Below, piece by piece: positions 10 to 18,826 of a stretch of 64,000 nucleotides of DNA. Location: NCBI GenBank assembly GCA_963818475.1, contig CAWFSF010000002.1:416001-480000 (forward strand), given 5' to 3'. Position 1 is the stretch's first letter. Every line of letters begins with the position of its first letter. Origin of the DNA: Nitrospirota bacterium (GTDB taxonomy: Bacteria > Nitrospirota > UBA9217). A model generated the notes under the pieces. The model searched no databases. It was not told the origin of the DNA and was given only the letters and a program-made list of their open reading frames with translations. A program made the translations under genes and the position numbers.

Positions 10-2219
<2,210 letters not shown>

Positions 2220-4277: not shown

Positions 4278-5513
4278 ATGTCATCAGACCGCGATAGGAG
4301 AACGAGCATCGTCATCATCGGCGGGGGCTTTGCCGGGCTTGAGGCCGCCTTCACCCTCAAAGGCCTTCTGGGATCCGCTGCCGGCATCACGCTTATCGAT
4401 CGGAACGCCTGTCATACTTTCATCCCGTCCATTCATGAGATCATCTCAGGAAAGGTGGAGCCGCAGCAGCTCCGCATCCCGCTTCGCGTCATGCTCGCTC
4501 CGGCAGGCATCGATTTTATCCAGGAGGAGGTCCTGGGACTGGACCGCGAACGACGTCAGATCAGTACGAACAGCACGATCCTGGACTACGACTACCTGGT
4601 CCTGGGCGTCGGCGCGGAGAACAATTTTTTCAACATCCCCGGCGCTGCAGAGCTGGCATACCGGTTCCGGTCATCCGAGGATGCTGAGCGGATCAGACAA
4701 GAGTTCTCACGCATCATGGCAGACGAGTCGTACACCTACACCGTCATGATCGCCGGCGGCGGCACCGAAGGCGTCGAGGTCGCCGGTGAGGTAGTCGACG
4801 CGATTGAAAACGGCTGCGGACGCGATGCGCTCCTGTCAGGAAGGATCACGGTCGAACTGATCGAGGGACAGGACCGGCTGCTGCCGGGCTTCCCTGGCCG
4901 GGTCCGGGACTTTTCCGGAGATTATCTGAGGAAACGGGGTGTCAAGCTCACGACAGGCAGCCGCATCATCGGGGTGCAGAAGGACAGCGTGATACTCGAT
5001 GACGGCGCAAACCGCCCGATGTCCCTGCTGATATGGACCGGCGGCATCCAGCCCCCGAAACTGATCAGTACGCTTTCACTGCCCAAAGACCCCTCAGGCT
5101 GGCTCAAAGTGAACGACCACCTCCAGGTGTTCGATGATGACCAGGCCTACGGCATCGGCGATGCCGTCAGCATCTACCATGGCGAGGAGCCCCTGCGTGT
5201 TGCCCGCCTTGCCTACCATGCGCAGGACCAGGCCCATATTGCTGCGCTCAACATCGCGAACCATCTGGCAGGACGCGGCCTGGACTCCTATGTTCCGAAG
5301 AAGAAGCCGCAGCTCATTTCCATGGGCAAAAACATGGGCCTCTATGTTGAAGGCGATGAGTTCCATAGCGGTGCCTGGGTCGTGTCTTTAAAGAAGGGCA
5401 TTGAAAAACAGCATCTGCTGGCCTATCTCTCGAAACCTGTTTCCTCAGCTCTGTGGTCGAAGGTTCCGGGTTCTGAGATCCTGAACAGACTGTGGCTGCG
5501 CCGGACACGGTGA
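4278..5513 (+). CDS. FAD-dependent pyridine nucleotide-disulfide oxidoreductase (NDH-2-like)
   Basis: IIGGGFAG FAD motif, second GGGTEGVEVAGE motif, YGIGDA. Confidence 0.85.
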   Translation: MSSDRDRRTSIVIIGGGFAGLEAAFTLKGLLGSAAGITLIDRNACHTFIPSIHEIISGKVEPQQLRIPLRVMLAPAGIDFIQEEVLGLDRERRQISTNSTILDYDYLVLGVGAENNFFNIPGAAELAYRFRSSEDAERIRQEFSRIMADESYTYTVMIAGGGTEGVEVAGEVVDAIENGCGRDALLSGRITVELIEGQDRLLPGFPGRVRDFSGDYLRKRGVKLTTGSRIIGVQKDSVILDDGANRPMSLLIWTGGIQPPKLISTLSLPKDPSGWLKVNDHLQVFDDDQAYGIGDAVSIYHGEEPLRVARLAYHAQDQAHIAALNIANHLAGRGLDSYVPKKKPQLISMGKNMGLYVEGDEFHSGAWVVSLKKGIEKQHLLAYLSKPVSSALWSKVPGSEILNRLWLRRTR

Positions 5514-5714
5514 GCAGCATAGACAAATCGACAACCCTGTTGATCCGGAACTTCGGAAGAAGTCCCGGCTTTTTATTTCATACGATATCATTCCAGGATC
5601 GAACAAACATATATTGATTGATCAGCACCGTATGAGTATAATTGCATCATGAGCCGGACATACTGATCTTTGATGCCTTCCCCTCATGCTGCTCAAAATA
5701 TTCAGGAGGTAGTT

Positions 5715-6260
5715 ATGCCAAAAGTTGCAGTCATTCTAGCCGATGGATTTGAGGAAGTGGAAGCCATAGCCATCATCGATGTGCTGCGACGGGCCGGGAT
5801 CGATGTCGTCGCCGCAGGCTTGCACGACGGCCACATAACGAGCTCGCACAAGGTCAAGGTCATCCCGGATACGGTGATCGACACCGTGAAAGTTGATGAC
5901 TTCGACATGCTCGTGCTGCCGGGCGGACAACCCGGGTCTGACAACTTGAACGCCGATGCGCGCGTCATCGCGCTGATCAAAAGCTTTTCGCAAAAAGGCA
6001 AGCTCACCGGAGCCATCTGCGCAGCGCCCTTCGTGCTCGGCAACGCAGGCGTGCTTGCCGGCAAACGCGCGACTTCCTACCCTTCCTACAAGGACAAGCT
6101 CTGCGGAGCGACCTATGAGGAAAAGACCGTGGTGGAAGATGGAAATGTACTGACCAGCAGGGGCGCCGGCACGGCGCTCGCCTTCGGCCTTGCCATTGTG
6201 GCGCGGCTGGTGGGCGCGGAGAAAGCGCAGAAGATCAAGGAAGCGATGCTGATCGCATGA
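5715..6260 (+). CDS. DJ-1/PfpI (YajL/ThiJ) family glyoxalase/deglycase
   Basis: ADGFEEVEA, LPGG, AICAAP nucleophile elbow; SD AGGAGG before ATG 5715. Confidence 0.92.
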   Translation: MPKVAVILADGFEEVEAIAIIDVLRRAGIDVVAAGLHDGHITSSHKVKVIPDTVIDTVKVDDFDMLVLPGGQPGSDNLNADARVIALIKSFSQKGKLTGAICAAPFVLGNAGVLAGKRATSYPSYKDKLCGATYEEKTVVEDGNVLTSRGAGTALAFGLAIVARLVGAEKAQKIKEAMLIA

Positions 6261-6292
6261 AAAACGAAAAGCTAAAGAAAACTTTAGATTCG

Positions 6293-6391
6293 TCTCTCGC
6301 AAAGCCCGCAGAACGCAAAGGAAATCTTTAACCCTGGCTTTTAAACCTGATAATTCGCCGTTCTTGGCGACCTTTGCGCCTTTGCGAGAGA
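6293..6391. repeat. Intergenic inverted-repeat element, CGCAAAG family
   Basis: tctcgcaaag...cgcaaagg / cctttgcgcctttgcgaga; related copy at 36238-36338. Confidence 0.75.
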
Positions 6392-6456
6392 CGCCGTTGC
6401 TTTCGGTTCCTGCCTTCCCGGTTTAAGGTATTTTATAGAAGCAATTACAAAACGAG

Positions 6457-7062
6457 GTGCCACCCATGGACGACAAACCCCTTCCCAAGCCAGCCGCAAC
6501 ACCCTTCACCCGCAAGAAGGCCGGCGAGCACCGCGAAGACCAGGAACCGCTCACCGCCGACCGGATGGCGGAGGCCATGGCACAAGGCACGCTCGATGAA
6601 TTCCTCAAGCAGAAAATGCCTGATAACGAAGCTGCCAGAAAACTGGCCAGCATGATGATGGGAATGACGGGGATGATGCCGATGGGTGGCTCACCCGCGT
6701 CGCCTCCGCCTTCTGCGCCTGAGCAACAGCCCCTTTCTTCCGAAATGAATGCAGCAGAACAAATATCTCCACCGGGAGATGTACCCGAGGATGTGAGAAA
6801 GGCCATCGAAAGCGGAGATGTCCAGGGTCTCAAGGACCTGCTTCGACGGGAATATCTCAAGCGGACGCCCGGAGCCAATATTGATAACAGCGAAGAAGCT
6901 GCTGCACCGCCGCCGCAGGCGTCCGGCATGCCCGCGATCGACAAGGAATTGATCGATGCAATGTTCCAGATAGCGAAAGACAATTACGTTACCATGGACT
7001 GGATGATCCTGAGGGCTATCAAGTTTTATGTTGAAGAGTACCGGAAGACCGGGAAGTTGTAG
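6457..7062 (+). CDS. Hypothetical protein with possible C-terminal ribbon-helix-helix-like segment
   Basis: 201-aa ORF with host-like codon usage and Pro-rich linkers. Confidence 0.7.
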   Translation: MPPMDDKPLPKPAATPFTRKKAGEHREDQEPLTADRMAEAMAQGTLDEFLKQKMPDNEAARKLASMMMGMTGMMPMGGSPASPPPSAPEQQPLSSEMNAAEQISPPGDVPEDVRKAIESGDVQGLKDLLRREYLKRTPGANIDNSEEAAAPPPQASGMPAIDKELIDAMFQIAKDNYVTMDWMILRAIKFYVEEYRKTGKL

Positions 7063-7135
7063 GCTGGGTAGAGCCAACGCGAAACCCGACAAATGATCCC
7101 AACACCTTCGTAGATAGAGCCAACGGGAACCCACT
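7058..7135. repeat. GTAG-type REP-like pair between convergent genes
   Basis: gtaggctgggtagagccaacgcgaaacccgac and gtagatagagccaacgggaaccc share tagagccaacg-aaccc. Confidence 0.55.
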
Positions 7136-8269
7136 CTACTTTCTCAAAAACTCCTGCACCTGTTTCTTGATCTCCAGATGATGCACCGGAATATTCGGCA
7201 CATCCTTGTTCCCCGGAACCGTGAGAACATGGATAAAAGTTAATCCCTCACGCTGTCTTTTCATCACGTCGACCAACTCCTGCTCACCCGCAACTTTGAT
7301 CGTATTTCTGAAACCAAATCCCCGCGCAACCTGTTCAAGGTCCACGCAGGACGCAGCGAGCGTGGGTTGGTTTCCTGTTGACCCGTAGGCGCCGTTGTCG
7401 ATGGCGACGATCGTGAGGTTACGGGGATAAACGGAGGCTGCTGTCGCGAGCGTGCCGGGGTTCATGAGCAGGCTGCCGTCGCCGTCGATGACGACCACTT
7501 CTTTCTTTGATGAGAGAGCGATGCCGAGGCCGATGGGCGTTGCCATGCCCATGCTGCCGAGCATGTAGAAGTTCGACGGCTGGTGCTTGATCGCGTACAA
7601 CTCCTTGGACGGCCAGCCGAGATTACTGACAACGACTTTACCGTCAAGGTATGGTGAAATTATTTTGATGATATCATAACGCGTATAGGTTGGTTTCAGT
7701 GCGTCCTGCCGTTTCATGACAGCACTTCCGCATTCCGCATTCCGTATTCCGAATTCGGTTTTCACTGTTCCGCAATCAGAACCTTCCCACACTGCCGGGC
7801 TCATCAGGAATGCATGGACCATGTTCTCATCATACACATCCTTGAGCTTCCGGTCCACCTTGCTGATATCATCGATGCTGTGTATCTCTGTATAGGTGAT
7901 CCCGGCGCTTATGAGCATAGCAGGAAGCCGCCTGCCCATGGGGAACTGGGCTTCGATCTTTTCCTTGTAGATCCCGCGCTGGCTCACGAAGATGGCAAGG
8001 GGCAGTTCAAAGAATTGGGTAAGCGAGAGCAAGGCATTGATCATGTTCCCGATGCCCGAGCTCTGGACGAACATGGCAGGTCTTCTCCCTGCCAGCGCGG
8101 CGCCGGCGCAGATTCCCACGCCCTCTTCCTCCCTCGTCAGCGGAAGATGATGAAAGGACCCGGCAACCAGCTCGAGCAGGGTCTTGATCTTCTCGCAGGG
8201 AAGCGATGCGGTGAGATCCACCCCGTGCTTTTTCAGTATGGCTATGAGCTCTTCTTCAGGTCGTGGCAC
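7136..8269 (-). CDS. comDE: Fused sulfopyruvate decarboxylase alpha/beta (ComDE)
   Basis: ComD half SLPC, TREEEGVGICAGAALAG, QSSGIGNMINALLSL; ComE half NFYMLGSMG, ThDP motif DGDGSLLMN...DNGAYGSTGNQ; adjacent to cysteate synthase. Confidence 0.88.
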   Translation of the reverse strand: MPRPEEELIAILKKHGVDLTASLPCEKIKTLLELVAGSFHHLPLTREEEGVGICAGAALAGRRPAMFVQSSGIGNMINALLSLTQFFELPLAIFVSQRGIYKEKIEAQFPMGRRLPAMLISAGITYTEIHSIDDISKVDRKLKDVYDENMVHAFLMSPAVWEGSDCGTVKTEFGIRNAECGSAVMKRQDALKPTYTRYDIIKIISPYLDGKVVVSNLGWPSKELYAIKHQPSNFYMLGSMGMATPIGLGIALSSKKEVVVIDGDGSLLMNPGTLATAASVYPRNLTIVAIDNGAYGSTGNQPTLAASCVDLEQVARGFGFRNTIKVAGEQELVDVMKRQREGLTFIHVLTVPGNKDVPNIPVHHLEIKKQVQEFLRK

Positions 8270-9501
8270 AGCAGTTCCTCGATATCTTTCTCCGTCGCGC
8301 TCTTCGAGATGAACTTCGGCAGGACCATGTGGGTTCGCTTGACCTCCCGCAGCTTTGCCTCGCCGCCGCCGGTGATGTTCAGGAGAACGGTGTCGCTCTT
8401 CTTGATAGCGCCTTTCCGCACGGCATCTTTGAGCACGGCCACGGCGACACCCGATGCAGGGACAAGGTCGATGCCCTCGGCCGCGAGAAACTCGTCCATT
8501 CCTGCGTATACCGCCTCGTTCTCAACGCCGTACATCCCTCCTCCGGCAGAGGTGAGGAGATCGAATACGCCGCCTTGCACCGAGTAGGCAGGGTAACGGG
8601 TAGAAAGTACGCGCGTGGTGATCTGGCTGATGAGCTCCGGATCCAGGTCTTCGGTGAACAGCGAGCGGCTGCCCTTCTCCCAGGCATGCAGCATCGGCGC
8701 AAAGGGCAGGTTCTGGCCCAGGTGGAACTGCGGCAAGCGCGTGCCGAACCTGCCGTCCCTGATGAACCGCTCGGCCATCTCCCAGCCTCCGATAGCGCCG
8801 GTGCCGCTTCCGACCGCCTGGACATAATGGTCCGGCAGTTTTCCGATCTTCGAGACCGCCTCGAGCATGACGATGCCGAGCCCGTCCCGCTTCGCGATAT
8901 TCTTCACCCCTCCTTCGAAGGGGTAGCCCGTTGCCGAAGCGACGCGCCTCGCGACATCGATGGAATCCGAGTAGTCTCCGTCTCCCACGGCCAGCGTGGG
9001 CACCAAGGACGAGCTTTCCAGGTACCACATCTCCGCCAGACACATCCGCGGCACGACGATGACCACGGGAAAACCCGTTCTTGTCGAAAGGTGTGCGAAG
9101 GCCCGCGCCGTGTTCCCTGCCGAGGCGACGATCAGCCCGTTCACACCGTTCTCCCGGGCGTTCTGAATCACGACAGCAGCTTCGAACTCCTTGAAGGTGC
9201 AGGTTTCGAGCAGCGCCCCCTTCTCGGGCCAGTAACCGTTGAACGCGATGAAGAGCTGCTCGAGACCGAGATGCCTGGCAAGACCCTGGGACCGGTACAC
9301 CAGCGGCCCCGGCTGGACCGACGCGGGCTGATGGACCGGAAGCCAGTTGAACCTCCAGATGCCGTCGGCGCCGCTCTCCCTGAACTGGCGGTCATGATAC
9401 TCTGTCACCAGGAGAGCGTCCTTGCAGTGCTCGCAGAAGGCGCAGTAGGAGTTCTCCAGCGTCTTTCCGCATTTCCTGCATCGTATGGAATAATGGCTCA
9501 T
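8242..9501 (-). CDS. Cysteate synthase (PLP, threonine-synthase-like)
   Basis: N-terminal CxxC..C, FNGYWPEKGA..TCTFKEFEA (PLP Lys), ASAGNTARAF, EGGVKNIAKRDGLG, HYVQAVGSGTG; overlaps comDE start. Confidence 0.85.
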   Translation of the reverse strand: MSHYSIRCRKCGKTLENSYCAFCEHCKDALLVTEYHDRQFRESGADGIWRFNWLPVHQPASVQPGPLVYRSQGLARHLGLEQLFIAFNGYWPEKGALLETCTFKEFEAAVVIQNARENGVNGLIVASAGNTARAFAHLSTRTGFPVVIVVPRMCLAEMWYLESSSLVPTLAVGDGDYSDSIDVARRVASATGYPFEGGVKNIAKRDGLGIVMLEAVSKIGKLPDHYVQAVGSGTGAIGGWEMAERFIRDGRFGTRLPQFHLGQNLPFAPMLHAWEKGSRSLFTEDLDPELISQITTRVLSTRYPAYSVQGGVFDLLTSAGGGMYGVENEAVYAGMDEFLAAEGIDLVPASGVAVAVLKDAVRKGAIKKSDTVLLNITGGGEAKLREVKRTHMVLPKFISKSATEKDIEELLCHDLKKSS

Positions 9502-9530
9502 GATTTTACCCTCTAAAAATAAAACTATCT

Positions 9531-9794
9531 CACCACGGAGTCACGGAGACACGGAGAAAGAGATTGGTTTTAAAAATCTGGTACAGAATGATTCCACGGA
9601 ATTCAAGTTTTATGGTCTCGTAAAAAGTCCTTAGTGCTTTCATCGCGAGGAGCGGAGCGACGCAGCAATCTCGTTTACCAGACACATACGAACTGCGAGA
9701 TTGCTTCGCTACACTCGCAAAGACGGCTGAGCAGACTTATTAAGCAAGCCTCGAACTTGAAGCGTCCTCCTCCGTGTCTCCGTGCCTCCGTGGT
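9531..9794. repeat. CACGGAG-family inverted-repeat element with nested palindromic element (9634-9727)
   Basis: caccacggagtcacggagacacggag ... ctccgtgtctccgtgcctccgtggt; inner gcgagg..gcaatctcg / cgagattgcttcgct..ctcgc. Confidence 0.85.
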
Positions 9795-11017
9795 AAATTC
9801 GTTTTTTTGCTTTCCTCTACCAACCCGCTCACCAGCTCCATGATGTCGGTGATCTTGATCTGTTTGTCGTGCCCCTGCATGGCCTCGTTCACCTTGGCAT
9901 AACACGCAGGACAGCTCAAGATCAGCCGGTCGGCCTTCTTTGCCACTGCCTCATCGATCGTTTGTCTGCCCATCTTGATGGCATTCTCGTGGTACACCTT
10001 GCGCGCCGCGCCGCCCGAGCCGCAGCAGCGCGAGTTCAGGCCGTGGCGCTCAAACTCGATGACCTTAACGCCCGGAATGCTCCGGAGAACGTCACGCGGT
10101 TCTTCGATGACGCCGACTCCCCGGGAAAGATAACAGGGGTCGTGATAGATCACCGTCTCGCGAAGTTCTTTCGTGATGCGCAGCGTTCCCGCCTTGACCG
10201 CGCCCGCAACGAACTGGGTGATATGCCGGATCGCAAAAGGAAGCTCTTTCCCATAGAACGCGGGCCAGTCCCTGCTCATGATGTTCACGCAGCAGGGACA
10301 GGAGCAGACCAGCGTTTTTACGCCCCTCGCCTCGTATCCCGCCACCAGCCTCTTGACCAGGTCTTCGAGCAGATCGTGCTGGCCGGTGATGAAGAGCGGG
10401 AAACCGCAGCACACCTCTTCCTCCGGCGGCAGCATGGTGAAGGGCGCTCCGATCGCATTCAGGACGAGCACGTCGCCGCGCACCATCGTCTGCGCTTCGT
10501 ACGCGCCCGTGCATCCTGCATAGTAGGCAACATCGGCGCGCTCGGCGACCCTCACGTTCCCGGGGAACCAGGGTTTGTATCGTTCTGCCGCCGGCTTTTC
10601 GTAGGGGTTGCCGCTTTTCGTAATGGCCTGCGGCAGGTTCGCCTGGACGCCGATCGGGCCGAGGCCGCGTTTTACCATTTCCTTCCGGAGCATGGGCCAG
10701 AGCCGCTGCGTGAAGATGCCGACAGGGCAGTTCTTCCCGCAGGCGCCGCAGGTAGTGCACTCGTACACGGCCTTGGTAAAGTCCTCGAGAAGCCTGGGGT
10801 CAACCGCTCCCGCGCCGAAAAGCTTCGCCTTGAGGCCGTCCGTGGACCGGATGAACTCCCGGAACATGCGGATCTTCTCGGGCGGAGAGACCGCTGCGTT
10901 TCCCGTCACGTCCTGGACCGGGCAGTGCTTGAGGCACTCGCCGCATTGGGTGCAGGCATCGATCTCCAGGACCTGCTTCGGTGAAAGCTCTTCCGTGAAT
11001 GAACGTTTATTTTTCAT
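9740..11017 (-). CDS. HdrD/GlcF-like iron-sulfur protein (2x[4Fe-4S] plus two CCG domains)
   Basis: CTQCGECLKHCP, CTTCGACGKNCP, CCG..CSCPCC, YHDPC..CCG..SCPAC. Confidence 0.9.
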   Translation of the reverse strand: MKNKRSFTEELSPKQVLEIDACTQCGECLKHCPVQDVTGNAAVSPPEKIRMFREFIRSTDGLKAKLFGAGAVDPRLLEDFTKAVYECTTCGACGKNCPVGIFTQRLWPMLRKEMVKRGLGPIGVQANLPQAITKSGNPYEKPAAERYKPWFPGNVRVAERADVAYYAGCTGAYEAQTMVRGDVLVLNAIGAPFTMLPPEEEVCCGFPLFITGQHDLLEDLVKRLVAGYEARGVKTLVCSCPCCVNIMSRDWPAFYGKELPFAIRHITQFVAGAVKAGTLRITKELRETVIYHDPCYLSRGVGVIEEPRDVLRSIPGVKVIEFERHGLNSRCCGSGGAARKVYHENAIKMGRQTIDEAVAKKADRLILSCPACYAKVNEAMQGHDKQIKITDIMELVSGLVEESKKTNLPRRHGDTEEDASSSRLA

Positions 11018-11693
11018 GCATCACCAAGGGAAGCGCCAGTTCCCGTTTCTCCGCTTCAAGCATCACCAGCGGAGCGGTCAGAATATGGGTTGGAAGAAAA
11101 GGGATCAGGACCAGAACCAGGGAAAAATGCAGCAGGAACAGGATGCTGCCCGGTACTGCAGCCGGCGAGAAGCACAGTATCCCTTGGATGAACAATTTCA
11201 CCATCACGATATCGGCCCTGAAAACGGTGTTCATCAGAAGGCCGAGTGAACTGATCACGAGCAAAAGGACCAGAAGGAACATATTGGCAGGCGAGGAATA
11301 TTTTTCCTGGACGGAGAACCGCCGGATGACAAGGATATAGACCAGTGACAGAGGAAGGACGTAGCCGGCGATCAGTCCGGGGACCTGGACCCACCATACC
11401 CACTCCGGGACGGTGTGGAGAAAATACTTCAGATGCCGCAGGACAACGAGCAGGAACGAAACATGGAAGACCCACTCGCCGAACCACAGCGCGGGGTTGA
11501 CCATTAAAAGCCTCCAGAAGAAGACCACGTCCCGTACCGATAACGCACATGCCTTCGCCGACAACGGCGGCGCCGTCCCCGCGATCGCAGCGGGACGCGC
11601 CACCGCCTTCCACCAGAGCAGTGCATGCAGAAAGAACCGTATGCAGAACGCCGCATACACGCCGTACGCGGCAACGATCAACAACGTACCCAT
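11007..11693 (-). CDS. NarI/HdrE-like cytochrome b membrane subunit
   Basis: About 5 TM helices, His pairs WVFH..LRH and LLH..PTH; overlaps the HdrD-like gene. Confidence 0.8.
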   Translation of the reverse strand: MGTLLIVAAYGVYAAFCIRFFLHALLWWKAVARPAAIAGTAPPLSAKACALSVRDVVFFWRLLMVNPALWFGEWVFHVSFLLVVLRHLKYFLHTVPEWVWWVQVPGLIAGYVLPLSLVYILVIRRFSVQEKYSSPANMFLLVLLLVISSLGLLMNTVFRADIVMVKLFIQGILCFSPAAVPGSILFLLHFSLVLVLIPFLPTHILTAPLVMLEAEKRELALPLVMHEK

Positions 11694-11771
11694 AGGCGTC
11701 CTTTCACAAGGAGATAGTATGAGTATAACTCACCGTCCTCGTGTGAGATAGGGGGACAGCAGCCGGCGACC

Positions 11772-12089
11772 TCATTTCTCCCGGACGAATTCGATCCGCA
11801 CGTCCTTCGGCACGTTCATGCCCGCTTCCGTCTCGATGGCCTTCAGGATGGCGGAAGGCACCGGGCAGGCGACGTGCTTGAGATGCTTCGCCGCGGACAG
11901 GTAGATCGGGTTGTCGCGGAAACCTGTGAGCGTCACCCGCTGGTCCACGGTCGCGATATCCGCAAGCATCTTCTGCACCATCTCGCAGGCCGTGTCCAGG
12001 GAGATTGCGATCTTCTTATCCTTCCCTTTCTCCGCCGTGATGGTGACGGTGAACCCGCATGCGCCTGAATTGACGATGACTTTGGTCAT
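11772..12089 (-). CDS. Small Cys-containing conserved protein (GxCG...C...HxxCPVP; DUF6951-like)
   Basis: MTKVIVNSGACGF...TACE...HVACPVP; SD GGAG before ATG 12089. Confidence 0.75.
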   Translation of the reverse strand: MTKVIVNSGACGFTVTITAEKGKDKKIAISLDTACEMVQKMLADIATVDQRVTLTGFRDNPIYLSAAKHLKHVACPVPSAILKAIETEAGMNVPKDVRIEFVREK

Positions 12090-12125
12090 TGTTGCTCCGT
12101 CCGAAAAAAACAACATCAAGGATCC

Positions 12126-12220
12126 TTTGACACTGATCAAGGCCGATTAACCTATGATAGGGGCAGATATCAGTGAATCATGCCTTTTTTCATAAATAAT
12201 CCGCCTTTATCAGTGTCAAA
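12126..12220. repeat. TTTGACACTGAT-family inverted-repeat element
   Basis: tttgacactgat ... atcagtgtcaaa; second copy at 55441-55537. Confidence 0.7.
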
Positions 12221-12254
12221 TATTTTTACCTTGTTGTTTCAATTCGCAATCGAC

Positions 12255-14231
12255 TCATCCTTTGATCTCCACCGTAGCCCCTTGCTTTACGAGCAGCTCC
12301 TTCAGGTTCGGGAACTTGTCCTTCATGTGCGGGATGTGCATGGCCTGCATGAACTCCTTCTCGAAGGCCGGGTCCGTGGCGATCTCGACGAATTCGACCC
12401 AGCGGGCCCGTTCGTTCGCTTCCCGCCGCTTGTCCCGGTTCAGGAGCGCTATGCGCGAACCGTCGCCGGCAGCGTTGCCCACGGCGTAGACCATGTCGAT
12501 GGGGCAGTCCGGGAACATGCCGAGCGTGAGCGAAGCCACTTTGTCGATGTGGCTCCCGAAGGCGCCTGCCAGTATCACGCGGTCGAGCTTGGTGATGCCG
12601 AGCCGCTTCATCATCAGTTTTGCGCCTGCATAGAGCGCTCCTTTGGCTAGCTGGAGCGCGCGCACGTCGCCCTGGGTGATGGTGATGTCGTGGCCGATGG
12701 ATGTCTCCGCAGCCCAGGCAAGCACGTACTCCGGTTTACCGTCCACGTCCTTCCGTACTCGATTGGTGCCGAGGTCCAGGACGAACCTGCCGCTTTTATC
12801 AATGATGCCGGCCTTGAACATTTCGGCCACCACGCCGATGATGCCGGAGCCGCAGAGGCCCTTGGCATTCACCTTTTCGATATGCGTGTGCCAGTCCGCC
12901 TTGCCGATGACCTTGTACCGGGGCTCCTTCGTGGCGGGGTCGATCTCGACGGTCTCGATGGCGCCCGGTGCTGCGCGCATGCCGAACTTGATCTGGGCGC
13001 CTTCGAAGGCCGGGCCGGTTGCGCAGGACGTGGAGCAGACCTTGTTCCGGTTGCCCATGAGCAGCTCGCCGTTCGTGCCGATGTCGATGATCAGGACCAT
13101 CTCGTCCTGGTTGTAGGGTTCTTCCGCGATCAGCACGCCCACGTTGTCGGCGCCCACGAAGCCCGCTTCGATCGGCAGCACGTGAATGTAGGAACCTGGA
13201 TTGATCCGGAGGCCCAGGTCGCGCGCCTTGATATCGAGCGAGTTCTGGACCGCAGGGATGAAGGGCGACCGGCCGATGTATTCGGGGTTCAGGCCCAGGA
13301 AGATGTGGTGCATGGCCGTATTGAATACGATCGTCAGGTCGTCGATCATGAACCCGGGGTTCAAGTCGTCCTTTTTTATGTCCACGGAAACGCGCTCGAT
13401 GATCTCGTTCAGGCCCTGGATGATCGCCTTCTGCATGGTGTCCAGGCCGCCCGGATTGCTCATGGCAAAGGTGATGCGCGACATCACGTCCTCGCCGTAG
13501 GGCACCTGGGGGTTCATCATGGATTCGGTGTTCACGACCTTGCCCGTGCTCAGGTCCGTCAAATAGCCCACGCAGGTCGTCGTGCCGACGTCCACGGCAA
13601 GGCCGTAGCTCGCCTCGACAAAGCCCGGCTCCACCTTGATGATCTCCCTGTCCATCCAGACCGTGACCGTTGCCTTCCACGCGTCCTTTCTGAGAACGTC
13701 CTGGAGGTCTTTGAGCACCAGGTAATCGAACGTAAGCCCTGTAAGCTTGTAGTTGTCCTCAAGGTATTTCAGCACCCGTTCCCAGTCGCCCGTGGTCATA
13801 TCGTGGAGTGACGGTTGTGCGAGTTCGACATTGTACTTCTTTACCGCCGGGTCGAGCTTGATCGTGAGCTCTTTCGCTGCCTTCCTGACGACCTGTTTGC
13901 CCGCGCGCGAACGTTCGGGTACGAAGACCTTGACGTCGCCGTGGATCTCGGCCGTACACGACAGCCTGATGCCCGGCCCGTCCTCGGGCTTGATGTGCTT
14001 TTTCTCCGCTTCGGAGAGCGGGGAGAGATGGGCCATGCCCGATTCGATATTGTCCTTTTCGAAATAGCCTTCTTCGATCCTGACCTTGCACTTGCCGCAG
14101 ACCTTTTTGTTTCCGCAGAGCGCTTCGATGTCAACACCCAGGGACTGGGCCGCTTCAAGGATGGTCTTGCCGTCCTCTACTTCGCCGCGGCTGCCCGAGG
14201 GCTGGAATATCACTTTGTGTTTCTTGAGCAT
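12255..14231 (-). CDS. ASKHA-type ATP-dependent reductive activator of corrinoid proteins (RACo/COG3894)
   Basis: N-terminal [2Fe-2S] CGNKKVCGKC..RLSC; DVGTTT, DIGTNGE, CATGPAFEG, GLCGSG, LAGAFG, GNAA. Confidence 0.93.
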   Translation of the reverse strand: MLKKHKVIFQPSGSRGEVEDGKTILEAAQSLGVDIEALCGNKKVCGKCKVRIEEGYFEKDNIESGMAHLSPLSEAEKKHIKPEDGPGIRLSCTAEIHGDVKVFVPERSRAGKQVVRKAAKELTIKLDPAVKKYNVELAQPSLHDMTTGDWERVLKYLEDNYKLTGLTFDYLVLKDLQDVLRKDAWKATVTVWMDREIIKVEPGFVEASYGLAVDVGTTTCVGYLTDLSTGKVVNTESMMNPQVPYGEDVMSRITFAMSNPGGLDTMQKAIIQGLNEIIERVSVDIKKDDLNPGFMIDDLTIVFNTAMHHIFLGLNPEYIGRSPFIPAVQNSLDIKARDLGLRINPGSYIHVLPIEAGFVGADNVGVLIAEEPYNQDEMVLIIDIGTNGELLMGNRNKVCSTSCATGPAFEGAQIKFGMRAAPGAIETVEIDPATKEPRYKVIGKADWHTHIEKVNAKGLCGSGIIGVVAEMFKAGIIDKSGRFVLDLGTNRVRKDVDGKPEYVLAWAAETSIGHDITITQGDVRALQLAKGALYAGAKLMMKRLGITKLDRVILAGAFGSHIDKVASLTLGMFPDCPIDMVYAVGNAAGDGSRIALLNRDKRREANERARWVEFVEIATDPAFEKEFMQAMHIPHMKDKFPNLKELLVKQGATVEIKG

Positions 14232-14269
14232 GATTCCTCCTGAACTACTCGAATCTAAGAGCTATATCC

Positions 14270-14395
14270 ACCACGGAGACACGGAGGCACGGAGGAAAAC
14301 AGATTACTAGTGCTTCATTAAGTTCGTTAGTTGCTTAATCCAAAGACACGCCTGATCTCAGTATCGATTTCTCCGTGTCTCCGTGACTCCGTGGT
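14270..14395. repeat. CACGGAG-family inverted-repeat element
   Basis: accacggagacacggaggcacggag / ctccgtgtctccgtgactccgtggt. Confidence 0.85.
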
Positions 14396-14401
14396 TAAAA
14401 A

Positions 14402-15040
14402 TTATCCTGCAATCGTTTCTTTCCTCCCATACGGACAAATATTGATACACAGCCCGCAGTTGGGCTTGCCGTCAGTTGCCCGCTTGGTCGATTTGTGGCT
14501 TCTGCAGTCGCTGAGCTTCACCAGTTCAACAAAAGGCGAGGACCGGGACCATTCCCGACCCGTGATCGCATGCGAAGGACAGTAGGTCATGCAGAGCGTG
14601 CAATCGCCGCACAAGCTGTGTTCCATGGGCGCATCCGGCCGGAAACGGGCATCGGTCAGGACCGTGACAAGCGACAGGCGCGGACCGTGGTCGATGTTGA
14701 TAAGAAGCCCGTTCTTCCCGATCCAGCCCAACCCGGCGGACGTGGCCGCCATCTTGTGATTGAACAGGGAGTAGAGCTTCGAGATGCACGTGCCCTTCCT
14801 GCGGTCCGAGTCCGGCGGGATGGCAAGGGTGCGATGCCCCCGGGCCTTCAGGAACCGGACCGCCCGCTTCTCAAGCTTCGCGAGCAGGCTGAGGGTGTCT
14901 TCATTCAGCCTCCGGTCCACACCGATGGACACCGCCCGGGCCAGATGGGCGATCTCGCCGCTCAGGTACCCGTCGAGGCCTGCGAACCCCACGACCGTTG
15001 CGCCGTGGTCCAGCAGTTCTTTCCTGAGCGAGGTCTTCAT
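14402..15040 (-). CDS. QueG/reductive-dehalogenase-like 2x[4Fe-4S] protein
   Basis: HKMAATSAGLGWIGKNGLL..GPRLSLVTVLTD, CGDCTLCMTYCP, CGLCINICP. Confidence 0.8.
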   Translation of the reverse strand: MKTSLRKELLDHGATVVGFAGLDGYLSGEIAHLARAVSIGVDRRLNEDTLSLLAKLEKRAVRFLKARGHRTLAIPPDSDRRKGTCISKLYSLFNHKMAATSAGLGWIGKNGLLINIDHGPRLSLVTVLTDARFRPDAPMEHSLCGDCTLCMTYCPSHAITGREWSRSSPFVELVKLSDCRSHKSTKRATDGKPNCGLCINICPYGRKETIAG

Positions 15041-15729
15041 TTCGCTTTCTTGGCTTCCACCTCATCCTTCATCTTTTTGAGCGACTCGATCATGTTGATG
15101 GCGTCCTTCAACGCGTTGGTCGCGTCCTTGGCGTAGCCGTCGGCGCCGTACTTGTCAGCCACGTCCTGGGACACCGGGGCGCCGCCGATCATGATCTTGA
15201 CATGCGGGTTCTTGGCCCGGAGATCGTCGATGACCTTCTTCATGCCGGTCATGGTCGTGGTCATCATGGCCGAAAGGCAGACGAGGTCGGAATCGGTCCG
15301 GAGCTGCTCGGCGACGAATTTGTCCAGCGGCACATCCCGGCCCAGATCGTAGACCGTGAAGCCGGCCACGTCGAACATCATCTTCACGATGTTCTTGCCG
15401 ATATCGTGCACGTCGCCTTCCACGGTCCCGATAACGACCGATCCCTTCACGCCCAGGTCCAGCTGCTTCACGTGGGGCTTCAGGATGTCCAGGCCCGCGT
15501 AGAGCGCGTCTGCGCACATGAGCAGCTCGGGCACGAAGTACTCCTGCGCCTCGAACATCTTTCCCACTTCCACCATGCCGGAGACGAGTCCGTTGAAGAT
15601 GGCGTCGTTCGCTTCCATGCCCACGTCCAGCGCCTCCTGCGACGCTTCCTTGGACGTGTCTTCGTCGTACTGGATCACCGCGTTCCGCAGTTTTGCCAGG
15701 AGCTCTTTCTTTTTTTCTTCCGTAACCAT
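15037..15729 (-). CDS. Corrinoid (B12-binding) protein, MtaC/MtbC family
   Basis: B12 cap YFVPELLM; DVHDIGKN..SAMMTTT..IGGAP motif. Confidence 0.95.
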   Translation of the reverse strand: MVTEEKKKELLAKLRNAVIQYDEDTSKEASQEALDVGMEANDAIFNGLVSGMVEVGKMFEAQEYFVPELLMCADALYAGLDILKPHVKQLDLGVKGSVVIGTVEGDVHDIGKNIVKMMFDVAGFTVYDLGRDVPLDKFVAEQLRTDSDLVCLSAMMTTTMTGMKKVIDDLRAKNPHVKIMIGGAPVSQDVADKYGADGYAKDATNALKDAINMIESLKKMKDEVEAKKAK

Positions 15730-15733
15730 AGGG

Positions 15734-16753
15734 TCACCTCCGGTAATTTTTAACTTCGTCCATCATGGCCTTCATGTTCTCCGGCGGCACCGTGGGCCAG
15801 ATATCGCAGCCGGGCCAGACCGCGCTCACGCCGTCGTCCATGCACTTCCTGATGGTCTGACGCACCAGGTCCGGCGTACCGGCCACCAGCACGTTGTAGG
15901 GATCGTAGTTCCCGAAGACCAGCGCTTTGGGGCCGAGCTTCTTGCGCGTTTCGGCAACATCGTTCTTCTGGTCCACGCTGATCGCCTTGGCGCCGCTTTC
16001 GGCCATGAACGGAACGATATCGTTCGTCTTGCCGCAGATATGGATCACGCTCGGCACGGAGAGGTTCTCGAAGATCTTCTTGAGGTACGGCAGGATGAGG
16101 CTCTTGAAAACCCGCGGGGAAAGCACGTCCGACGTCGCCCCCATCTCGCGCACCGTGATGAAGTCCACGCCTGCCTTCTCGTACTCCTTCGCCACCTGGA
16201 TGATCACGTCCGCCATCTGGTCGAGCAGTTTCCCGATCTTGTCCGGCTTTTTAAAGGACAGCTTCAGCAGGTCGTTCAGCTCCATGATCTGGCCGGCCAG
16301 CGTGAACGGCCCGAGCACGTAGGAACCGACGGCTGCTTCAGCGCCGATGTCCTTTTTGAGCAGTTTGATGACCTCGACCATGAGCGGCACCCTGCCGCGC
16401 CCGGTAAGGCCCGTGGGGAGCGCAATGTCGAGCTCCGCCTCGTTGTGGATCAGCTTTTTCTTGATCGTGGGGTACAGCAGGTCCTCGGAATGGGCATACA
16501 CGTTGATCTCGCAGCCCATTGCCTCGGCCTCGATGCAGAGGTCGAAGGGCGCCACGCCGCATTCGAAACCGAAGAGCTTGTAGGTCGACGCAGCTGCCGC
16601 TGCCATCATCTTCGCGTCAAGATGAGTAGCCGCGAAATTCTGGCCGAGCGCTTTGAGGCCCTCGGTCGTTACATTGCCCATGCCGCTGAAGCAGGGAGGT
16701 CGGTCGACCTCCTCGCCTGCAAACAGCTTCAGTACTCGTTCTCGTGAATTCAT
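15734..16753 (-). CDS. MtaA/CmuA-family methylcobamide:thiol methyltransferase (URO-D fold)
   Basis: PFDLCIEAEAMGC, Zn ligands HICG and PGC; probable start MNSRERV after SD GGAGG. Confidence 0.85.
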   Translation of the reverse strand: MNSRERVLKLFAGEEVDRPPCFSGMGNVTTEGLKALGQNFAATHLDAKMMAAAAASTYKLFGFECGVAPFDLCIEAEAMGCEINVYAHSEDLLYPTIKKKLIHNEAELDIALPTGLTGRGRVPLMVEVIKLLKKDIGAEAAVGSYVLGPFTLAGQIMELNDLLKLSFKKPDKIGKLLDQMADVIIQVAKEYEKAGVDFITVREMGATSDVLSPRVFKSLILPYLKKIFENLSVPSVIHICGKTNDIVPFMAESGAKAISVDQKNDVAETRKKLGPKALVFGNYDPYNVLVAGTPDLVRQTIRKCMDDGVSAVWPGCDIWPTVPPENMKAMMDEVKNYRR

Positions 16754-16808
16754 TATTATGGAACCTCCTTGAAATACAGTATCGGAATCAAATGGACCTA
16801 AAGCTATT

Positions 16809-16939
16809 ACCACGGAGACACGGAGGCACGGAGAAAGGCAATTAACTTTATGCAAGAACAGAAAATAATTTTCTGAGATTCTTAAAGCAAAATACGTGTT
16901 GGCCTTAACGTCTTCTCCGTGTCTCCGTGCCTCCGTGGT
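16809..16939. repeat. CACGGAG-family inverted-repeat element
   Basis: accacggagacacggaggcacggag / ctccgtgtctccgtgcctccgtggt. Confidence 0.85.
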
Positions 16940-16948
16940 GAAAAGGCT

Positions 16949-17896
16949 CTATTTTCTCGCTGCTCCTGCCGTTAACTTTCCTAAAAATTCGTTAAAGTAC
17001 TTCTTAATAGGAATATTCTCGTTGGCCGAGATCGTTTGTGTTTCATCGTAGACCAGGGTCGAGAGCAGGATCTGCGCTGCAGCCACGGCCGGGAAGATGC
17101 GCGGCGCCGTAACGATGGGGCCATAAAAATTAAAGTCGCTCCAGATCGCAGAGGACATTCCCTGCACCACGGCGTCCATGGCCTTGAACCCGTCCAGGCT
17201 CCAGATGGTCTTCGCTTCTTTCCACATGTGCGTGCCGTTCGAGTAGGCGCCGCCGCAGGGAAGGCCAAGCTTCTCCTTGATGAGCCTGTTGGCGACGAGC
17301 GAGAACGACGTCGCGGGCAGGTTCATGACCGAGGTGTCGACGATGACGGTCTCGAAATCCCCGGCGCCCTGGTCGAGCAGCTTTTCGAGCGATTTCAGCC
17401 GCCCCGCCGGCGTCTGGTCCTGGTCGTCGAAGGCCTGGACCACCACGTGTTTGATCCCCAGGTCCTTGAGCTTCTGTACCTGCCCCTTGATGTCCTTGTC
17501 CCAGGGCGTGATGCTGTTGTACAGGAACTTGTCCTGCAGACCCAGCTTGGCCACGTACTCGGTTGCCTCTGCCCGCTTCTCGGCGACCCACATGTCGATG
17601 CCGAAGGGCATCGTGGTAGTCTCGCGATAGAAATCGACATAGATCTTCGCTTCTTCCGCAGAGTTCGCCACCATGGCCACCATGGACGGAATGCCGGTGG
17701 AGAGCGAGAGCTGTTCCTGCGTTTTGATCAGCTCCGTCGCCTTCACACGGTCGAAGTTGCCTTTCCGGTCAGTCACGATCCGGTCCTTGTTATGGAACAT
17801 GGACGCGATCAAGAGAGGCGGGTTCTCCCCTGCCTGGCCGCCGACCTTGATCCCGTTGATGTTGAAAATCTTCTGTTCGCGGCTGAATCGAAACAT
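16949..17896 (-). CDS. MtrH/MtgA-like pterin:corrinoid methyltransferase
   Basis: N-terminus MFRFSREQKIFNINGIKVGGQAGENP resembles the MtrH family; LYNSI, IVDT, GLPCG, YGP. Confidence 0.85.
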   Translation of the reverse strand: MFRFSREQKIFNINGIKVGGQAGENPPLLIASMFHNKDRIVTDRKGNFDRVKATELIKTQEQLSLSTGIPSMVAMVANSAEEAKIYVDFYRETTTMPFGIDMWVAEKRAEATEYVAKLGLQDKFLYNSITPWDKDIKGQVQKLKDLGIKHVVVQAFDDQDQTPAGRLKSLEKLLDQGAGDFETVIVDTSVMNLPATSFSLVANRLIKEKLGLPCGGAYSNGTHMWKEAKTIWSLDGFKAMDAVVQGMSSAIWSDFNFYGPIVTAPRIFPAVAAAQILLSTLVYDETQTISANENIPIKKYFNEFLGKLTAGAARK

Positions 17897-17956
17897 CGTT
17901 GTCCTCTTTTCTTGTCTCTATCTGGTGGAACCGCTGGAATGTCTAAATCTATATCC

Positions 17957-18169
17957 ACCACGGAGGCACGGAGTCACGGAGAAATGCTGGCTTTAAACTT
18001 TCACGGCTGTCATTGCGAGGAGCGTTTTATGCGACGCGGCAATCTCGAACTTGTTGTTTTGTTGAACTACGAGATTGCTTCGCTTCGCTCGCAAAGACGG
18101 CTAAAGGGCTTTTCAACAACCTGCTGGATCTGCAGTCCGTGATTTTGCTCTCCTCCGTGTCTCCGTGGT
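17957..18169. repeat. CACGGAG-family element with nested GTCATTGCGAG element (18009-18098)
   Basis: Outer arms as in other copies; inner gtcattgcgagg..gcaatctcg / cgagattgcttcgcttcgctcgcaaagac. Confidence 0.85.
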
Positions 18170-18207
18170 TAATAAGGTTTTTATGTACTGTATAAAAGTA
18201 TGATTTC

Positions 18208-18240
18208 AAAAGGCGGGGGAGCCTTCGAAACGCTCCCCCA
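18208..18240 (-). terminator. Probable intrinsic terminator/attenuator inside the operon
   Basis: Minus strand GGGGGAGC-loop-GCTCCCCC then GCCTTTT, just after the CMD-family gene. Confidence 0.55.
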
Positions 18241-18249
18241 TGATGATCG

Positions 18250-18696
18250 TTAAAACACGCCGTGGTCGAACTTCGGCGCCGGGAGATACTCCCACTTCTC
18301 GCCTTTCCTGAACTTGGTTTCTATGTCGAGGCACTTTAAGGCGTACTCGAAAGCATAGGGAATGCCGGGACCGCCCGGCACAAAGCCGCCGAGGATCATG
18401 CCTACCGACGCCGCCTCGAAGATCTCCATCGTGGTCGCGCCGGCATTGATCGCCGGGATCACGTGGATGATGCACCGGGGCGAGCAGTAGGCAACGCCGC
18501 CCGACATGAACATCAACTCCTTCACCTTGCGGGAAAGCGCCCCGTCTGCGAAAATGCTCGCATAGAAATCTGCGAAAGTCCTTCCCGGTTCGGGTGTCAC
18601 GGTGTTGATGACCTGGAACATGCGCGGTACGAACCCGCACTGCTGCTTCATGTAATCGTTACATTCTTCCGTCGTCATCTTTTTCTTGTCAGCCAT
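18250..18696 (-). CDS. Carboxymuconolactone decarboxylase/AhpD-family protein
   Basis: GALSRKVKEL, CSPRCIIH, AGAT..EIFEA; SD AGGAGG. Confidence 0.85.
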   Translation of the reverse strand: MADKKKMTTEECNDYMKQQCGFVPRMFQVINTVTPEPGRTFADFYASIFADGALSRKVKELMFMSGGVAYCSPRCIIHVIPAINAGATTMEIFEAASVGMILGGFVPGGPGIPYAFEYALKCLDIETKFRKGEKWEYLPAPKFDHGVF

Positions 18697-18826
18697 TTGT
18701 GTTTCCCTCCTCTTGCCCTGGCGCTGTCTGCGCCCGGGAAACTTGGTTTTTCAACGCCTCACGTACCTTCGTGCAACATACTTCAAATTCAGTCTGAAAC
18801 GCCTTCACCTCTCTCTCATCTGAAAG

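Follow-up and report, generated by a model that had tools for sequence, protein, structure and literature searches.

Archaeal-type genes for cysteate synthase and a fused sulfopyruvate decarboxylase (ComDE), the front half of the archaeal pathway to coenzyme M (CoM), are fixed in a widespread lineage of Nitrospirota bacteria, with 58 of 301 sampled genomes of the phylum positive. We describe this pair of genes in a 64,000-nucleotide stretch of DNA (the window), positions 416001-480000 of contig C2 in a Nitrospirota genome (G000; 4.66 Mb in 7 contigs, 91% complete, 6.2% contamination), where bacterial housekeeping genes (ftsK, uppP, ftsZ and ftsA) surround the locus. The two genes close an operon of methyltransferase and heterodisulfide reductase (Hdr)-like genes, and this context is the main clue to the use of the pair. 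The enzymes themselves are already known; for their association we found no earlier description. We propose, with confidence evenly balanced between yes and no, that the pair makes sulfoacetaldehyde for a CoM-type thiol used by the methyltransferase/Hdr-like system. The most likely identity of this private C2 sulfonate thiol would be CoM itself.

Identity of the cysteate synthase and ComDE

Proteins were assigned to families by NCBIfam profile scores against curated equivalog cut-offs, together with Pfam. The pyridoxal phosphate (PLP) enzyme scores 459.9 bits on the cysteate synthase model TIGR03844 (cut-off 324.9). The thiamine pyrophosphate (TPP) enzyme matches the ComD model TIGR03845 over residues 5-161 (184.4 bits, cut-off 147.95) and the ComE model TIGR03846 over residues 197-374 (232.6 bits against 221.5, a margin of only 11 bits). 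Pfam places TPP_enzyme_N and TPP_enzyme_C (64.7 bits) in the latter protein, and its translation holds GDGSLLMNPGTLATAASVYPRNLTIVAIDNG, a GDG...N motif that we take to be the TPP-binding motif. K104 in the FKE motif of the cysteate synthase, presumably the PLP-binding lysine, is invariant in 25 diverse homologues and aligned to the FKE of a solved 'Cysteate synthase' structure (9K3C). For both proteins, the records that hold the top homologues (72-92% identity) bear the names Nitrospirota, Nitrospirae or Thermodesulfovibrionia, and the ComDE homologues in this range are labelled sulfopyruvate decarboxylase in Nitrospirota records. The predicted reactions are O-phosphoserine + sulfite to L-cysteate for the first enzyme, and sulfopyruvate to sulfoacetaldehyde + CO2 for the second.

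Both focal open reading frames (ORFs) are intact, unlike several frame-split genes of the same genome, and a GAGGA Shine-Dalgarno sequence lies 6 nt 5' of the GTG start of ComDE. The downstream gene is convergent, with its stop 73 bp from that of ComDE, so that the pair ends the transcription unit. The middle part of this convergent ORF is rich in Met, Pro and Ala.

It is most improbable that the pair is misannotated, with the PLP enzyme being a threonine synthase (ThrC) and the TPP enzyme a phosphonopyruvate decarboxylase. These two enzymes come from families closely related to those assigned here, and the rival models do register: ComDE scores 212.8 bits on the phosphonopyruvate decarboxylase model TIGR03297, and the cysteate synthase reaches 97.1 bits on the top ThrC model. 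All of these scores lie below their cut-offs (312.5 for TIGR03297 and 303 for that ThrC model, with the other ThrC models likewise below), whereas the cysteate synthase, ComD and ComE models are exceeded. The genome also has its own ThrC (C6:793282-794451; TIGR00260, 272.9 bits against 167.1), which is 24% identical to the cysteate synthase. Against solved proteins, the cysteate synthase aligns with 9K3C at 302.7 bits and with ThrC structures at no more than 49 bits. Furthermore, the adjacency and order of the two genes match 37 of the 44 archaeal loci in a set of 80 loci of named records (44 archaeal, 22 Nitrospirota-type and 14 other bacterial) found with a 25-sequence cysteate synthase alignment. 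An earlier note on this DNA had named a cysteate synthase and a fused ComD/ComE whose genes overlap by 28 bp and end the operon; the curated cut-offs, the coordinates and the convergent downstream gene bear this out. The two enzymes that it had raised as dangers to its reading are both contradicted at the level of sequence, threonine synthase by the model scores and the separate ThrC, and phosphonopyruvate decarboxylase by its score below cut-off, though with a small ComE margin.

The operon and its conservation in Nitrospirota

The pair closes a minus-strand operon of 12-13 genes, with short spacers or overlapping genes (Table 1). Several CoM-related families share this operon, which speaks for a CoM-type product: a protein above the cut-off of NF004889, zinc sites in both UroD-family proteins and an HdrD architecture. 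The MtaA-like protein passes both NF004889, 'methylcobalamin:coenzyme M methyltransferase' (275.3 against 244), and TIGR01463 (253.7 against 235.4), and aligns with Methanosarcina mazei MtaA (4AY7, 160 bits) at the H-x-C (HICG) and PGC zinc ligands. It misses the methanogen equivalogs MtaA (249 against 400) and MtbA (191 against 600). The second UroD-family protein, UROD2, likewise has HICG and PGC aligned to the zinc ligands of 4AY7. For the HdrD-like protein, the top NCBIfam models are the thiol:fumarate reductase subunit TfrB (189.8 against 385) and DsrK (88 against 400), and all curated models remain below cut-off. The corrinoid protein is 91-100% identical among relatives.

The gene order of the operon is conserved across Thermodesulfovibrionia-type Nitrospirota. 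From UROD2 to ComDE it is identical in all six sufficiently long loci from other genera, and two short contigs show what they can. Cluster genes lie directly upstream of the pair at 18 of the 22 Nitrospirota-type loci, with two others (L029 and L033) too short to tell, and in four relatives the stop of the HdrD-like gene overlaps the cysteate synthase start. Locus L030 has a 3-kb insertion and no ComDE match.

Co-occurrence was surveyed in 301 Nitrospirota genomes, including G000, at thresholds of E <= 1e-100 for cysteate synthase and E <= 1e-120 for the MtaA-like protein. Cysteate synthase was found in 58 genomes and the MtaA-like protein in 60; both occur in 54, cysteate synthase only in four and the MtaA-like protein only in six. 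The four cysteate-synthase-only genomes are fragmented or incomplete. Two of the six with only the MtaA-like protein have a contig ending inside the cluster, one of them with a ComDE fragment at another contig end, and in G231 (74% complete, 440 contigs) the MtaA-like match starts 17 bp from a contig end. The remaining three belong to one genus, g39, in which the cluster stops after the DUF6951 gene. About 5 kb upstream of this cluster, g39 has a NarI-like/HdrD-like pair (45% identical), and the interval, next to the cluster itself, holds genes for a GAF-PAS kinase and a sigma-54 regulator; the g39 counterpart of the cytochrome b gene matches Pfam Nitrate_red_gam. The g39 loci (L103, L106 and L107, from another family) show a short cluster with neither an in-line cytochrome b/HdrD-like pair nor cysteate synthase and ComDE, followed by a radical S-adenosylmethionine (SAM) gene, a SAM methyltransferase gene and a B12-binding radical SAM gene; elsewhere in the genome, COG1900 is present in two of these three cases. 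Separately, genome G156 has two copies each of the cysteate synthase, MtaA-like and TauA-like genes (each 77-78% identical to the query), divided between contigs C16 and C40, which may reflect duplication or a mixed bin.

Table 1. Features at and around the cysteate synthase-ComDE locus, in window coordinates (paired scores are bits against the curated cut-off)
Feature	Position	Strand	Basis and remarks
Convergent ORF, 201 residues, no Pfam/NCBIfam family	6457-7062	+	Bounds the operon; kept at 14 of 25 loci compared
Fused sulfopyruvate decarboxylase ComDE (TPP enzyme)	7136-8269	-	377 residues, GTG start; TIGR03845 + TIGR03846
28-bp overlap of cysteate synthase stop region and ComDE GTG start	8242-8269	-	ORF coordinates
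Cysteate synthase (PLP enzyme)	8242-9501	-	419 residues, ATG start; TIGR03844
Intergenic spacer with dispersed REP-like element between CTCCGTG-heptad inverted repeats	9502-9739		Sequence and genome-wide copies
HdrD-like Fe-S protein, two 4Fe-4S motifs and two CCG domains	9740-11017	-	Pfam CCG x2 + Fer4_8
NarI/DsrM-like membrane cytochrome b	11007-11693	-	DsrM model 53.5 vs 300; 11-bp overlap with HdrD-like gene
DUF6951 small protein	11772-12089	-	PF22263, 104.9 bits
RACo-type corrinoid reductive activase	12255-14231	-	RACo_C_ter, Raco_middle, RACo_linker, Fer2; AcsV 473 bits, below cut-off
Truncated QueG/reductive-dehalogenase-like protein, two 4Fe-4S motifs	14402-15040	-	TIGR00276 61.6 and TIGR02486 44.5, both below cut-off
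Corrinoid (B12-binding) methyl carrier protein	15037-15729	-	B12-binding + B12-binding_2; TIGR02370 208.2
MtaA-type methylcobamide:thiol methyltransferase, UroD family	15734-16753	-	True start is M35 of the listed ORF
MtrH-family methyl-corrinoid:pterin methyltransferase	16949-17896	-	NF002142 325.6 vs 287; Pfam MtrH; MtgA 155 bits, below cut-off
AhpD/CMD-like small protein, CSPRC motif	18250-18696	-	PF02627 27.1 vs 23
Second UroD-family methyltransferase (UROD2)	18923-19975	-	PF01208 205.7; TIGR01463 192.9, below cut-off 235.4
Small receiver-like protein, probable first gene of the operon	19990-20319	-	Response_reg 25.2, below cut-off 30.2; kept at 9 loci
Methylenetetrahydrofolate reductase (MTHFR), upstream neighbour, probably own transcript	20604-21494	-	TIGR00676 323.7 vs 293.7
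Sigma-54 response regulator	31471-32805	-	Pfam; probable regulator
GAF/PAS histidine kinase, split over three ORFs	33128-35079	-	Pfam; probable regulator
Cytoplasmic TauA/SsuA-fold protein (NMT1_2)	35281-36201	+	PF13379 61.1; SsuA_fam 91.5, below cut-off

Among the other operon products, the truncated QueG-like protein matches solved QueG (5D6S) at E 1.6e-10. One of the most highly conserved operon products is the AhpD/CMD-like protein, with 81-96% identity in 14 relatives and 64% in L043, the most distant of them; it bears a weak resemblance to the AhpD domains in fusions with arsenite or other methyltransferase selenoproteins (20-27 bits on NCBIfam models, far below their cut-offs). A complex prediction for the HdrD-like protein with DUF6951 scored 0.00 and gave no verdict. 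The MTHFR gene also adjoins the cluster at L015, L016 and L105. Between it and the receiver-like gene lies a terminator-like hairpin (20553-20585), the sole strong-looking one; promoter and terminator scans gave no excess over shuffled sequences. Rfam found no riboswitch over 5000-23000, and its sub-threshold mir-4861 match at 16807-16941 falls on a REP-like hairpin and was discarded as spurious. The operon is flanked by genes for a pyridine-nucleotide disulfide oxidoreductase (4278-5513(+); TIGR03169-like, below cut-off), a DJ-1 protein (5670-6260(+)) and an OsmC-like protein (21699-22289(+)). Conservation of the first two does not reach beyond the closest relatives, L024 and L026, and they were rejected as parts of the system; OsmC also stands beside the cluster at L011 and L104.

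Inverted repeat pairs of a CTCCGTG heptad, within the 15-mer CTCCGTGTCTCCGTG (44 occurrences genome-wide), occupy intergenic spacers of the operon, at window positions 9542/9770, 14272/14371, 16811/16915, 18153, 33069 and 49096/49146. The repeats at 9542/9770 enclose a core of 100-130 bp, of which about 20 or more copies (73-88% identity) are scattered over the genome. This repetitive extragenic palindrome (REP)-like element is inserted before the cysteate synthase gene, where the spacer is now 238 bp and the HdrD-like C terminus is longer by about 25 residues; the corresponding spacer in relatives ranges from a 4-bp overlap to about 124 bp. A low-GC island (22001-32000; GC 0.46-0.50 against about 0.58-0.62 elsewhere) with integrase/HTH transposase-like ORFs separates the operon from the kinase, sigma-54 regulator and TauA-like genes. 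Two of its ORFs, 26535-27815 and 27961-29241, each 426 residues long, have the same HTH_23 and HTH_28 scores, with HTH_32 reported for one only.

The genome carries DsrA-like, AprA-like and acetyl-CoA synthase (CdhC) genes, each split over two or three frames (C6:2058388-2060509, C2:262347-264297 and C2:359300-359769), and no single piece of any of them reaches the full-length cut-off. Because these genes, ftsK (window 10-2219) and the GAF/PAS kinase gene are all split over frames, the assembly looks indel-prone, and single-ORF annotations in this genome need care.

Missing steps, a third partner and the proposed function

In archaea, the last step of CoM synthesis was assigned to MMP16 only recently, and MMP16 is dispensable when sulfide is present. 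The MMP16/ComF family (COG1900; PF01837) has no match in the whole G000 genome, and tblastn with Methanosarcina MMP16 on that genome returned ferredoxin-part matches only (best E 0.002). It is likewise missing from five of five near-complete cluster-bearing relatives, with control genomes matched. PF01837 does occur in 10 of the 301 genomes, all from two families whose sampled members (12 and 11 genomes) gave no cysteate synthase match. As a linkage control, Methanosarcina MMP16 (348 bits on PF01837) finds a neighbour in the fetched flanks at 19 of the 44 archaeal loci; the same flank search finds none at the 22 Nitrospirota-type or the 14 other bacterial loci. Neither the window nor the conserved surroundings of the pair hold a class I/II aminotransferase gene, and 20 PF00155 matches lie elsewhere in the genome, the nearest at C2:407950-408975, about 7 kb before the window start. 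The earlier note had seen neither a COG1900 gene nor an aminotransferase gene at the locus: the former absence now extends to the genome and to all 58 cysteate-synthase-positive genomes, the latter holds for the window. The genome-wide search that it proposed for sulfite-generating Dsr and Apr found DsrA-like and AprA-like genes, though split by frameshifts.

According to the available text of Chadwick et al. (PMC11844431), an MMP16 deletion strain of M. acetivorans shows CoM auxotrophy only when sulfide is lacking; sulfide at 0.4-1.5 mM hides it, possibly through an uncatalysed or promiscuous route. Since sulfide masks the loss of MMP16, the absence of COG1900 alone does not exclude CoM, and by analogy a COG1900-free route in a cell with dissimilatory sulfite reductase is plausible, or at least conceivable.

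A third gene travels with the pair. It encodes a TauA-like protein and sits in the window beside the split kinase and the sigma-54 regulator. In the 301-genome sample (orthologue threshold E <= 1e-60) it was found in 61 genomes, among them 57 of the 58 with cysteate synthase, the one miss being a 74%-complete genome. Four further genomes have it, three of them with a fragmented cluster, and none of the 12 genomes of family f3, to which g39 belongs, gave a match. In 10 genomes the gene follows cysteate synthase on its ComDE side at a distance of 1.1-2.1 kb, and it is convergent at L031, L032, L036, L040 and L041, where it ends 0.04-1.9 kb beyond ComDE (nearest at L036, furthest at L032). Its presence at L031 and L036, where methyltransferase genes are missing, links it to the pair and not to the methyltransferases. 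At two Hydrothermarchaeota loci an NMT1_2/SsuA-like gene overlaps the ComDE stop, and the window protein is 43% identical (E 3e-92) to the product of the ComDE-overlapping gene at L044.

The TauA-like protein has no predicted signal peptide, many invariant His and two invariant Cys. Its structural model (mean predicted local distance difference test, pLDDT, 87.6) superposes on 3UN6, taurine-binding TauA and alkanesulfonate-binding SsuA at template modelling (TM) scores of 0.76-0.85 (0.76-0.84 for TauA and SsuA), followed by the THI5 enzyme at 0.70-0.78. Foldseek matches range from E 7e-18 to 4e-15, sequence profiles match TauA and SsuA, and a language-model search placed it nearest to archaeal NMT1_2 clusters, which we treat as a lead only. 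No ABC transporter genes were seen beside the TauA-like gene in the loci examined. The protein may be a C2-sulfonate enzyme that supplies the missing step, or a cytoplasmic sulfonate sensor.

The DUF6951 protein of the operon, a term that we did not find in the searchable literature, has invariant Cys11, Cys35, His72 and Cys75 in its alignment. The top Foldseek matches of its model (pLDDT 89.3) are nearly all to IscU, SufE, CsdE and SufU and are weak (E 0.05-0.5, TM 0.45-0.57), and VIA-align mixes IscU/SufE-type folds with unrelated ones (Z 5-6.2). A sulfur-carrier or Fe-S role is a lead from these models.

In the scheme that we propose, cysteate synthase would make cysteate from phosphoserine and sulfite, a general housekeeping aminotransferase would convert cysteate to sulfopyruvate, and ComDE would yield sulfoacetaldehyde. 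The thiol would then be installed, giving CoM or a near analogue, by a step other than COG1900/MMP16; its source could be the sulfide of the cell or an unrecognised enzyme, for which the TauA/SsuA-fold protein is the best candidate and DUF6951 the second. The MtaA-type enzyme would exchange methyl groups between this thiol and the corrinoid protein, UROD2 would demethylate a methyl-sulfur (or methyl-selenium) substrate, and the MtrH-like enzyme would pass the methyl group to tetrahydrofolate, feeding the Wood-Ljungdahl pathway. The HdrD-like/cytochrome b pair would couple the thiol disulfide to the quinone pool. Besides the CoM-related families in the operon, this scheme draws on a supply of sulfite and sulfide suggested by the DsrA-like and AprA-like genes, frame-split as they are, and on the finding of no alternative sink for sulfoacetaldehyde: Xsc was not found genome-wide (top score 111.5 bits against a cut-off of 676.4).

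Several points weigh on the other side. CoM is a predicted end product, and NF004889 is a subfamily model that is no proof of CoM specificity. PF01837 matched in none of the 58 cysteate-synthase-positive genomes, with control genomes matched. McrA (PF02249) has no match in G000 or in five of five relatives, so that methyl-CoM has no known sink in any of these six cluster-bearing genomes. One corrinoid protein and an MtrH-like enzyme suffice to bring a methyl group to folate without CoM. Loci L031 and L036 have cysteate synthase, ComDE and the TauA-like gene with no methyltransferase genes within 4.5-10 kb upstream, and L040 lacks the cytochrome b/HdrD-like pair. Cysteate synthase and ComDE were not found genome-wide in the three g39 genomes that have the methyltransferase core, so this core can work without the pair. 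Taurine or isethionate would be no less compatible with the TauA-like fold than CoM is. Finally, the sampled genomes are related and not independent, so the co-occurrence counts overstate support, describing a pattern without testing it. We give a CoM-type thiol no better than an even chance because its need beside direct transfer to folate, and the g39 clusters without the pair, are unexplained.

Some of the same observations point to a different C2 sulfonate as the end product: taurine, isethionate or sulfoacetate, serving as a solute or building block, with the place in the operon reflecting co-regulation or a shared sulfite supply only. This is the main rival reading, possible if rather unlikely. 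It would agree with the lack of COG1900 anywhere, with the taurine/sulfonate-binding fold of the travelling partner, with the three-gene module outside a methyltransferase cluster at L031, L036 and in Hydrothermarchaeota, and with the g39 genomes that run the methyltransferase core without the pair; a subsurface study, in its available text, also floats anaerobic taurine synthesis from cysteate (PMC12019592). On the other hand, the genes conserved around the pair include none for a sulfoacetaldehyde reductase or a taurine aminotransferase, and no lipid gene. The ties to the operon are also close: the MtaA-like gene is present in 54 of the 58 positive genomes, cluster genes stand directly upstream at 18 of 22 loci, translation of the pair is coupled to that of the HdrD-like gene in four relatives, and both UroD enzymes have thiol-type zinc sites.

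A catabolic role is still harder to accommodate. Bacterial ComDE can act in sulfolactate degradation, and here it would degrade sulfopyruvate from sulfolactate or cysteate and free sulfite for respiration, for which the genome has DsrA-like and AprA-like genes. Cysteate synthase, as its family is defined in TIGR03844, consumes sulfite and phosphoserine and therefore runs in the biosynthetic direction; moreover, no Xsc was found, no desulfonating enzyme is conserved nearby and ComA was not found genome-wide. We consider this explanation quite improbable.

The CoM-type thiol remains our preferred reading, and a more specific version of it can be put forward tentatively, as a conjecture that we think is probably wrong in at least some part. 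Bacteria that lack methyl-CoM reductase (MCR) and resemble sulfate reducers would both make and use CoM, by a COG1900-independent route in which the part of MMP16 as CoM synthase falls to the TauA/SsuA-fold protein, perhaps together with the IscU-like DUF6951 and the HdrD-like protein. CoM would carry methyl groups and also form a thiol/disulfide couple linked to quinones, within a methyl-sulfur metabolism that feeds the Wood-Ljungdahl pathway. Related modules occur in Hydrothermarchaeota and Promethearchaeota. If true, CoM would have a fourth biosynthetic solution, and a third physiological role beyond methane/alkane and alkene metabolism.

Origin, significance and comparison with known systems

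Phylogenetic analyses place the Nitrospirota genes among archaeal ones. In a quick maximum-likelihood tree of 79 cysteate synthases, with the ThrC of the genome as a very long-branched outgroup, the Nitrospirota-type sequences form one clade (Shimodaira-Hasegawa-like approximate likelihood ratio test, SH-aLRT, 82) among archaeal clades on an unresolved backbone. A second bacterial clade (Spirochaetota, Cyanobacteria, Moduliflexota and Aminicenantes; support 100) is sister to Methanomicrobiales and ANME-1 (92). Its members have no ComDE beside the cysteate synthase homologue (L059, L068, L069, L071, L077, L079, L082, L084, L086, L093, L094, L097, L099 and L100) and presumably serve another sulfonate product. 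In an unrooted ComDE tree of 53 rows, Hydrothermarchaeota join the Nitrospirota clade (81) with a support of 72, the next branches are Promethearchaeota and the unclassified archaeon L050, and all Methanobacteriota fall on the other side (91). PF01837 was not found in two Hydrothermarchaeota and two Promethearchaeota genomes, the completeness of which is unknown. Identities to archaeal proteins are 41-48% for cysteate synthase and 42-55% for ComDE.

The simplest reading of these sequences would be a single acquisition of the pair and the TauA-like gene from archaea. The earlier note had suggested methanogens as the source and called for trees. These do recover one Nitrospirota clade amid archaeal sequences, but they do not show a methanogen donor: the cysteate synthase backbone is unresolved, and the nearest ComDEs are from the non-methanogens Hydrothermarchaeota and Promethearchaeota.

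To our knowledge, textbooks restrict CoM to methanogens, alkanotrophs and a few alkene-oxidising bacteria. The searchable literature, with supplements and subscription journals outside its scope, yielded no description of the pair in a bacterial methyltransferase/Hdr-like operon, and no report of a systematic absence of MMP16 or of a TauA-like partner. A cysteate synthase gene in one bacterial metagenome-assembled genome is mentioned, with speculation about taurine, in the available text of the subsurface study (PMC12019592). If the product here is CoM, the cofactor has a wider range and more roles than those now known, and these bacteria become a natural test bed for an MMP16-independent route, with the TauA-like partner as a concrete candidate either to carry out the missing step or to sense CoM. 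In that case mtaA, hdrD, comDE and cysteate synthase would also need care as 'methanogen' markers in metagenomes. If the product is another sulfonate, the genes still define a conserved anaerobic three-gene route to C2 sulfonates.

The closest known system is the type-2 (phosphoserine) CoM pathway of Methanosarcinales and Methanomicrobiales, which comprises cysteate synthase, an aminotransferase, ComDE and MMP16/ComF. As there, both enzyme families exceed curated cut-offs, ComDE is fused and cysteate synthase precedes ComDE, the order of 37 of 44 archaeal loci. Archaeal loci often have COG1900/MMP16 adjacent (19 of 44), whereas G000 and the other positive genomes (58 of 58 in all) have none; the host here is bacterial and has no MCR, and the pair is joined to a methyltransferase/Hdr-like operon. 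In alkene oxidisers, the Xanthobacter xcb genes for CoM synthesis lie beside epoxyalkane:CoM transferase, and the Nitrospirota locus similarly clusters cofactor biosynthesis genes with likely cofactor-using enzymes. The xcb route starts with ComA, in contrast to the Nitrospirota genome, where no ComA was found and the operon has no alkene or epoxide genes.

Methylotrophic methanogens offer a parallel for the remainder of the operon. As with MtaA, MtbA and MtsA, there is an MtaA-family enzyme above a subfamily cut-off, with its zinc ligands kept, and a corrinoid protein; as with HdrDE, there is a two-CCG HdrD-type protein with a membrane cytochrome b, though every curated model is below cut-off. 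Unlike in these methanogens, the lack of MCR means that no heterodisulfide is known to form, and the presence of MTHFR and of an MtrH-like methyltransferase of the folate type suggests that methyl groups are oxidised or assimilated through the Wood-Ljungdahl pathway.

Type 1 mlp clusters of anaerobic non-methanogens also come close, as far as the available text of Kountz and Balskus (PMC10418091) describes them. They too encode several His-Cys-Cys MtaA-like UroD proteins, a corrinoid protein and a RACE/RACo activase. That text takes the His-Cys-Cys zinc site as a mark of S- and Se-methyltransferases, O-demethylases having replaced a Cys, and its authors propose a role for Type 1 clusters in methyl-sulfur or methyl-selenium metabolism. 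Those clusters have no folate methyltransferase, unlike the operon described here, which includes an MtrH-family gene above cut-off; and the Results text on Type 1 clusters, together with a term search of the paper, gave no CoM biosynthesis gene, HdrD-like pair or Nitrospirota. The third partner, finally, differs from the periplasmic sulfonate-binding proteins TauA and SsuA in having no signal peptide, in its many invariant His and Cys and in scoring below the SsuA_fam cut-off, while its fold is that of TauA, SsuA and THI5 of the NMT1 family.

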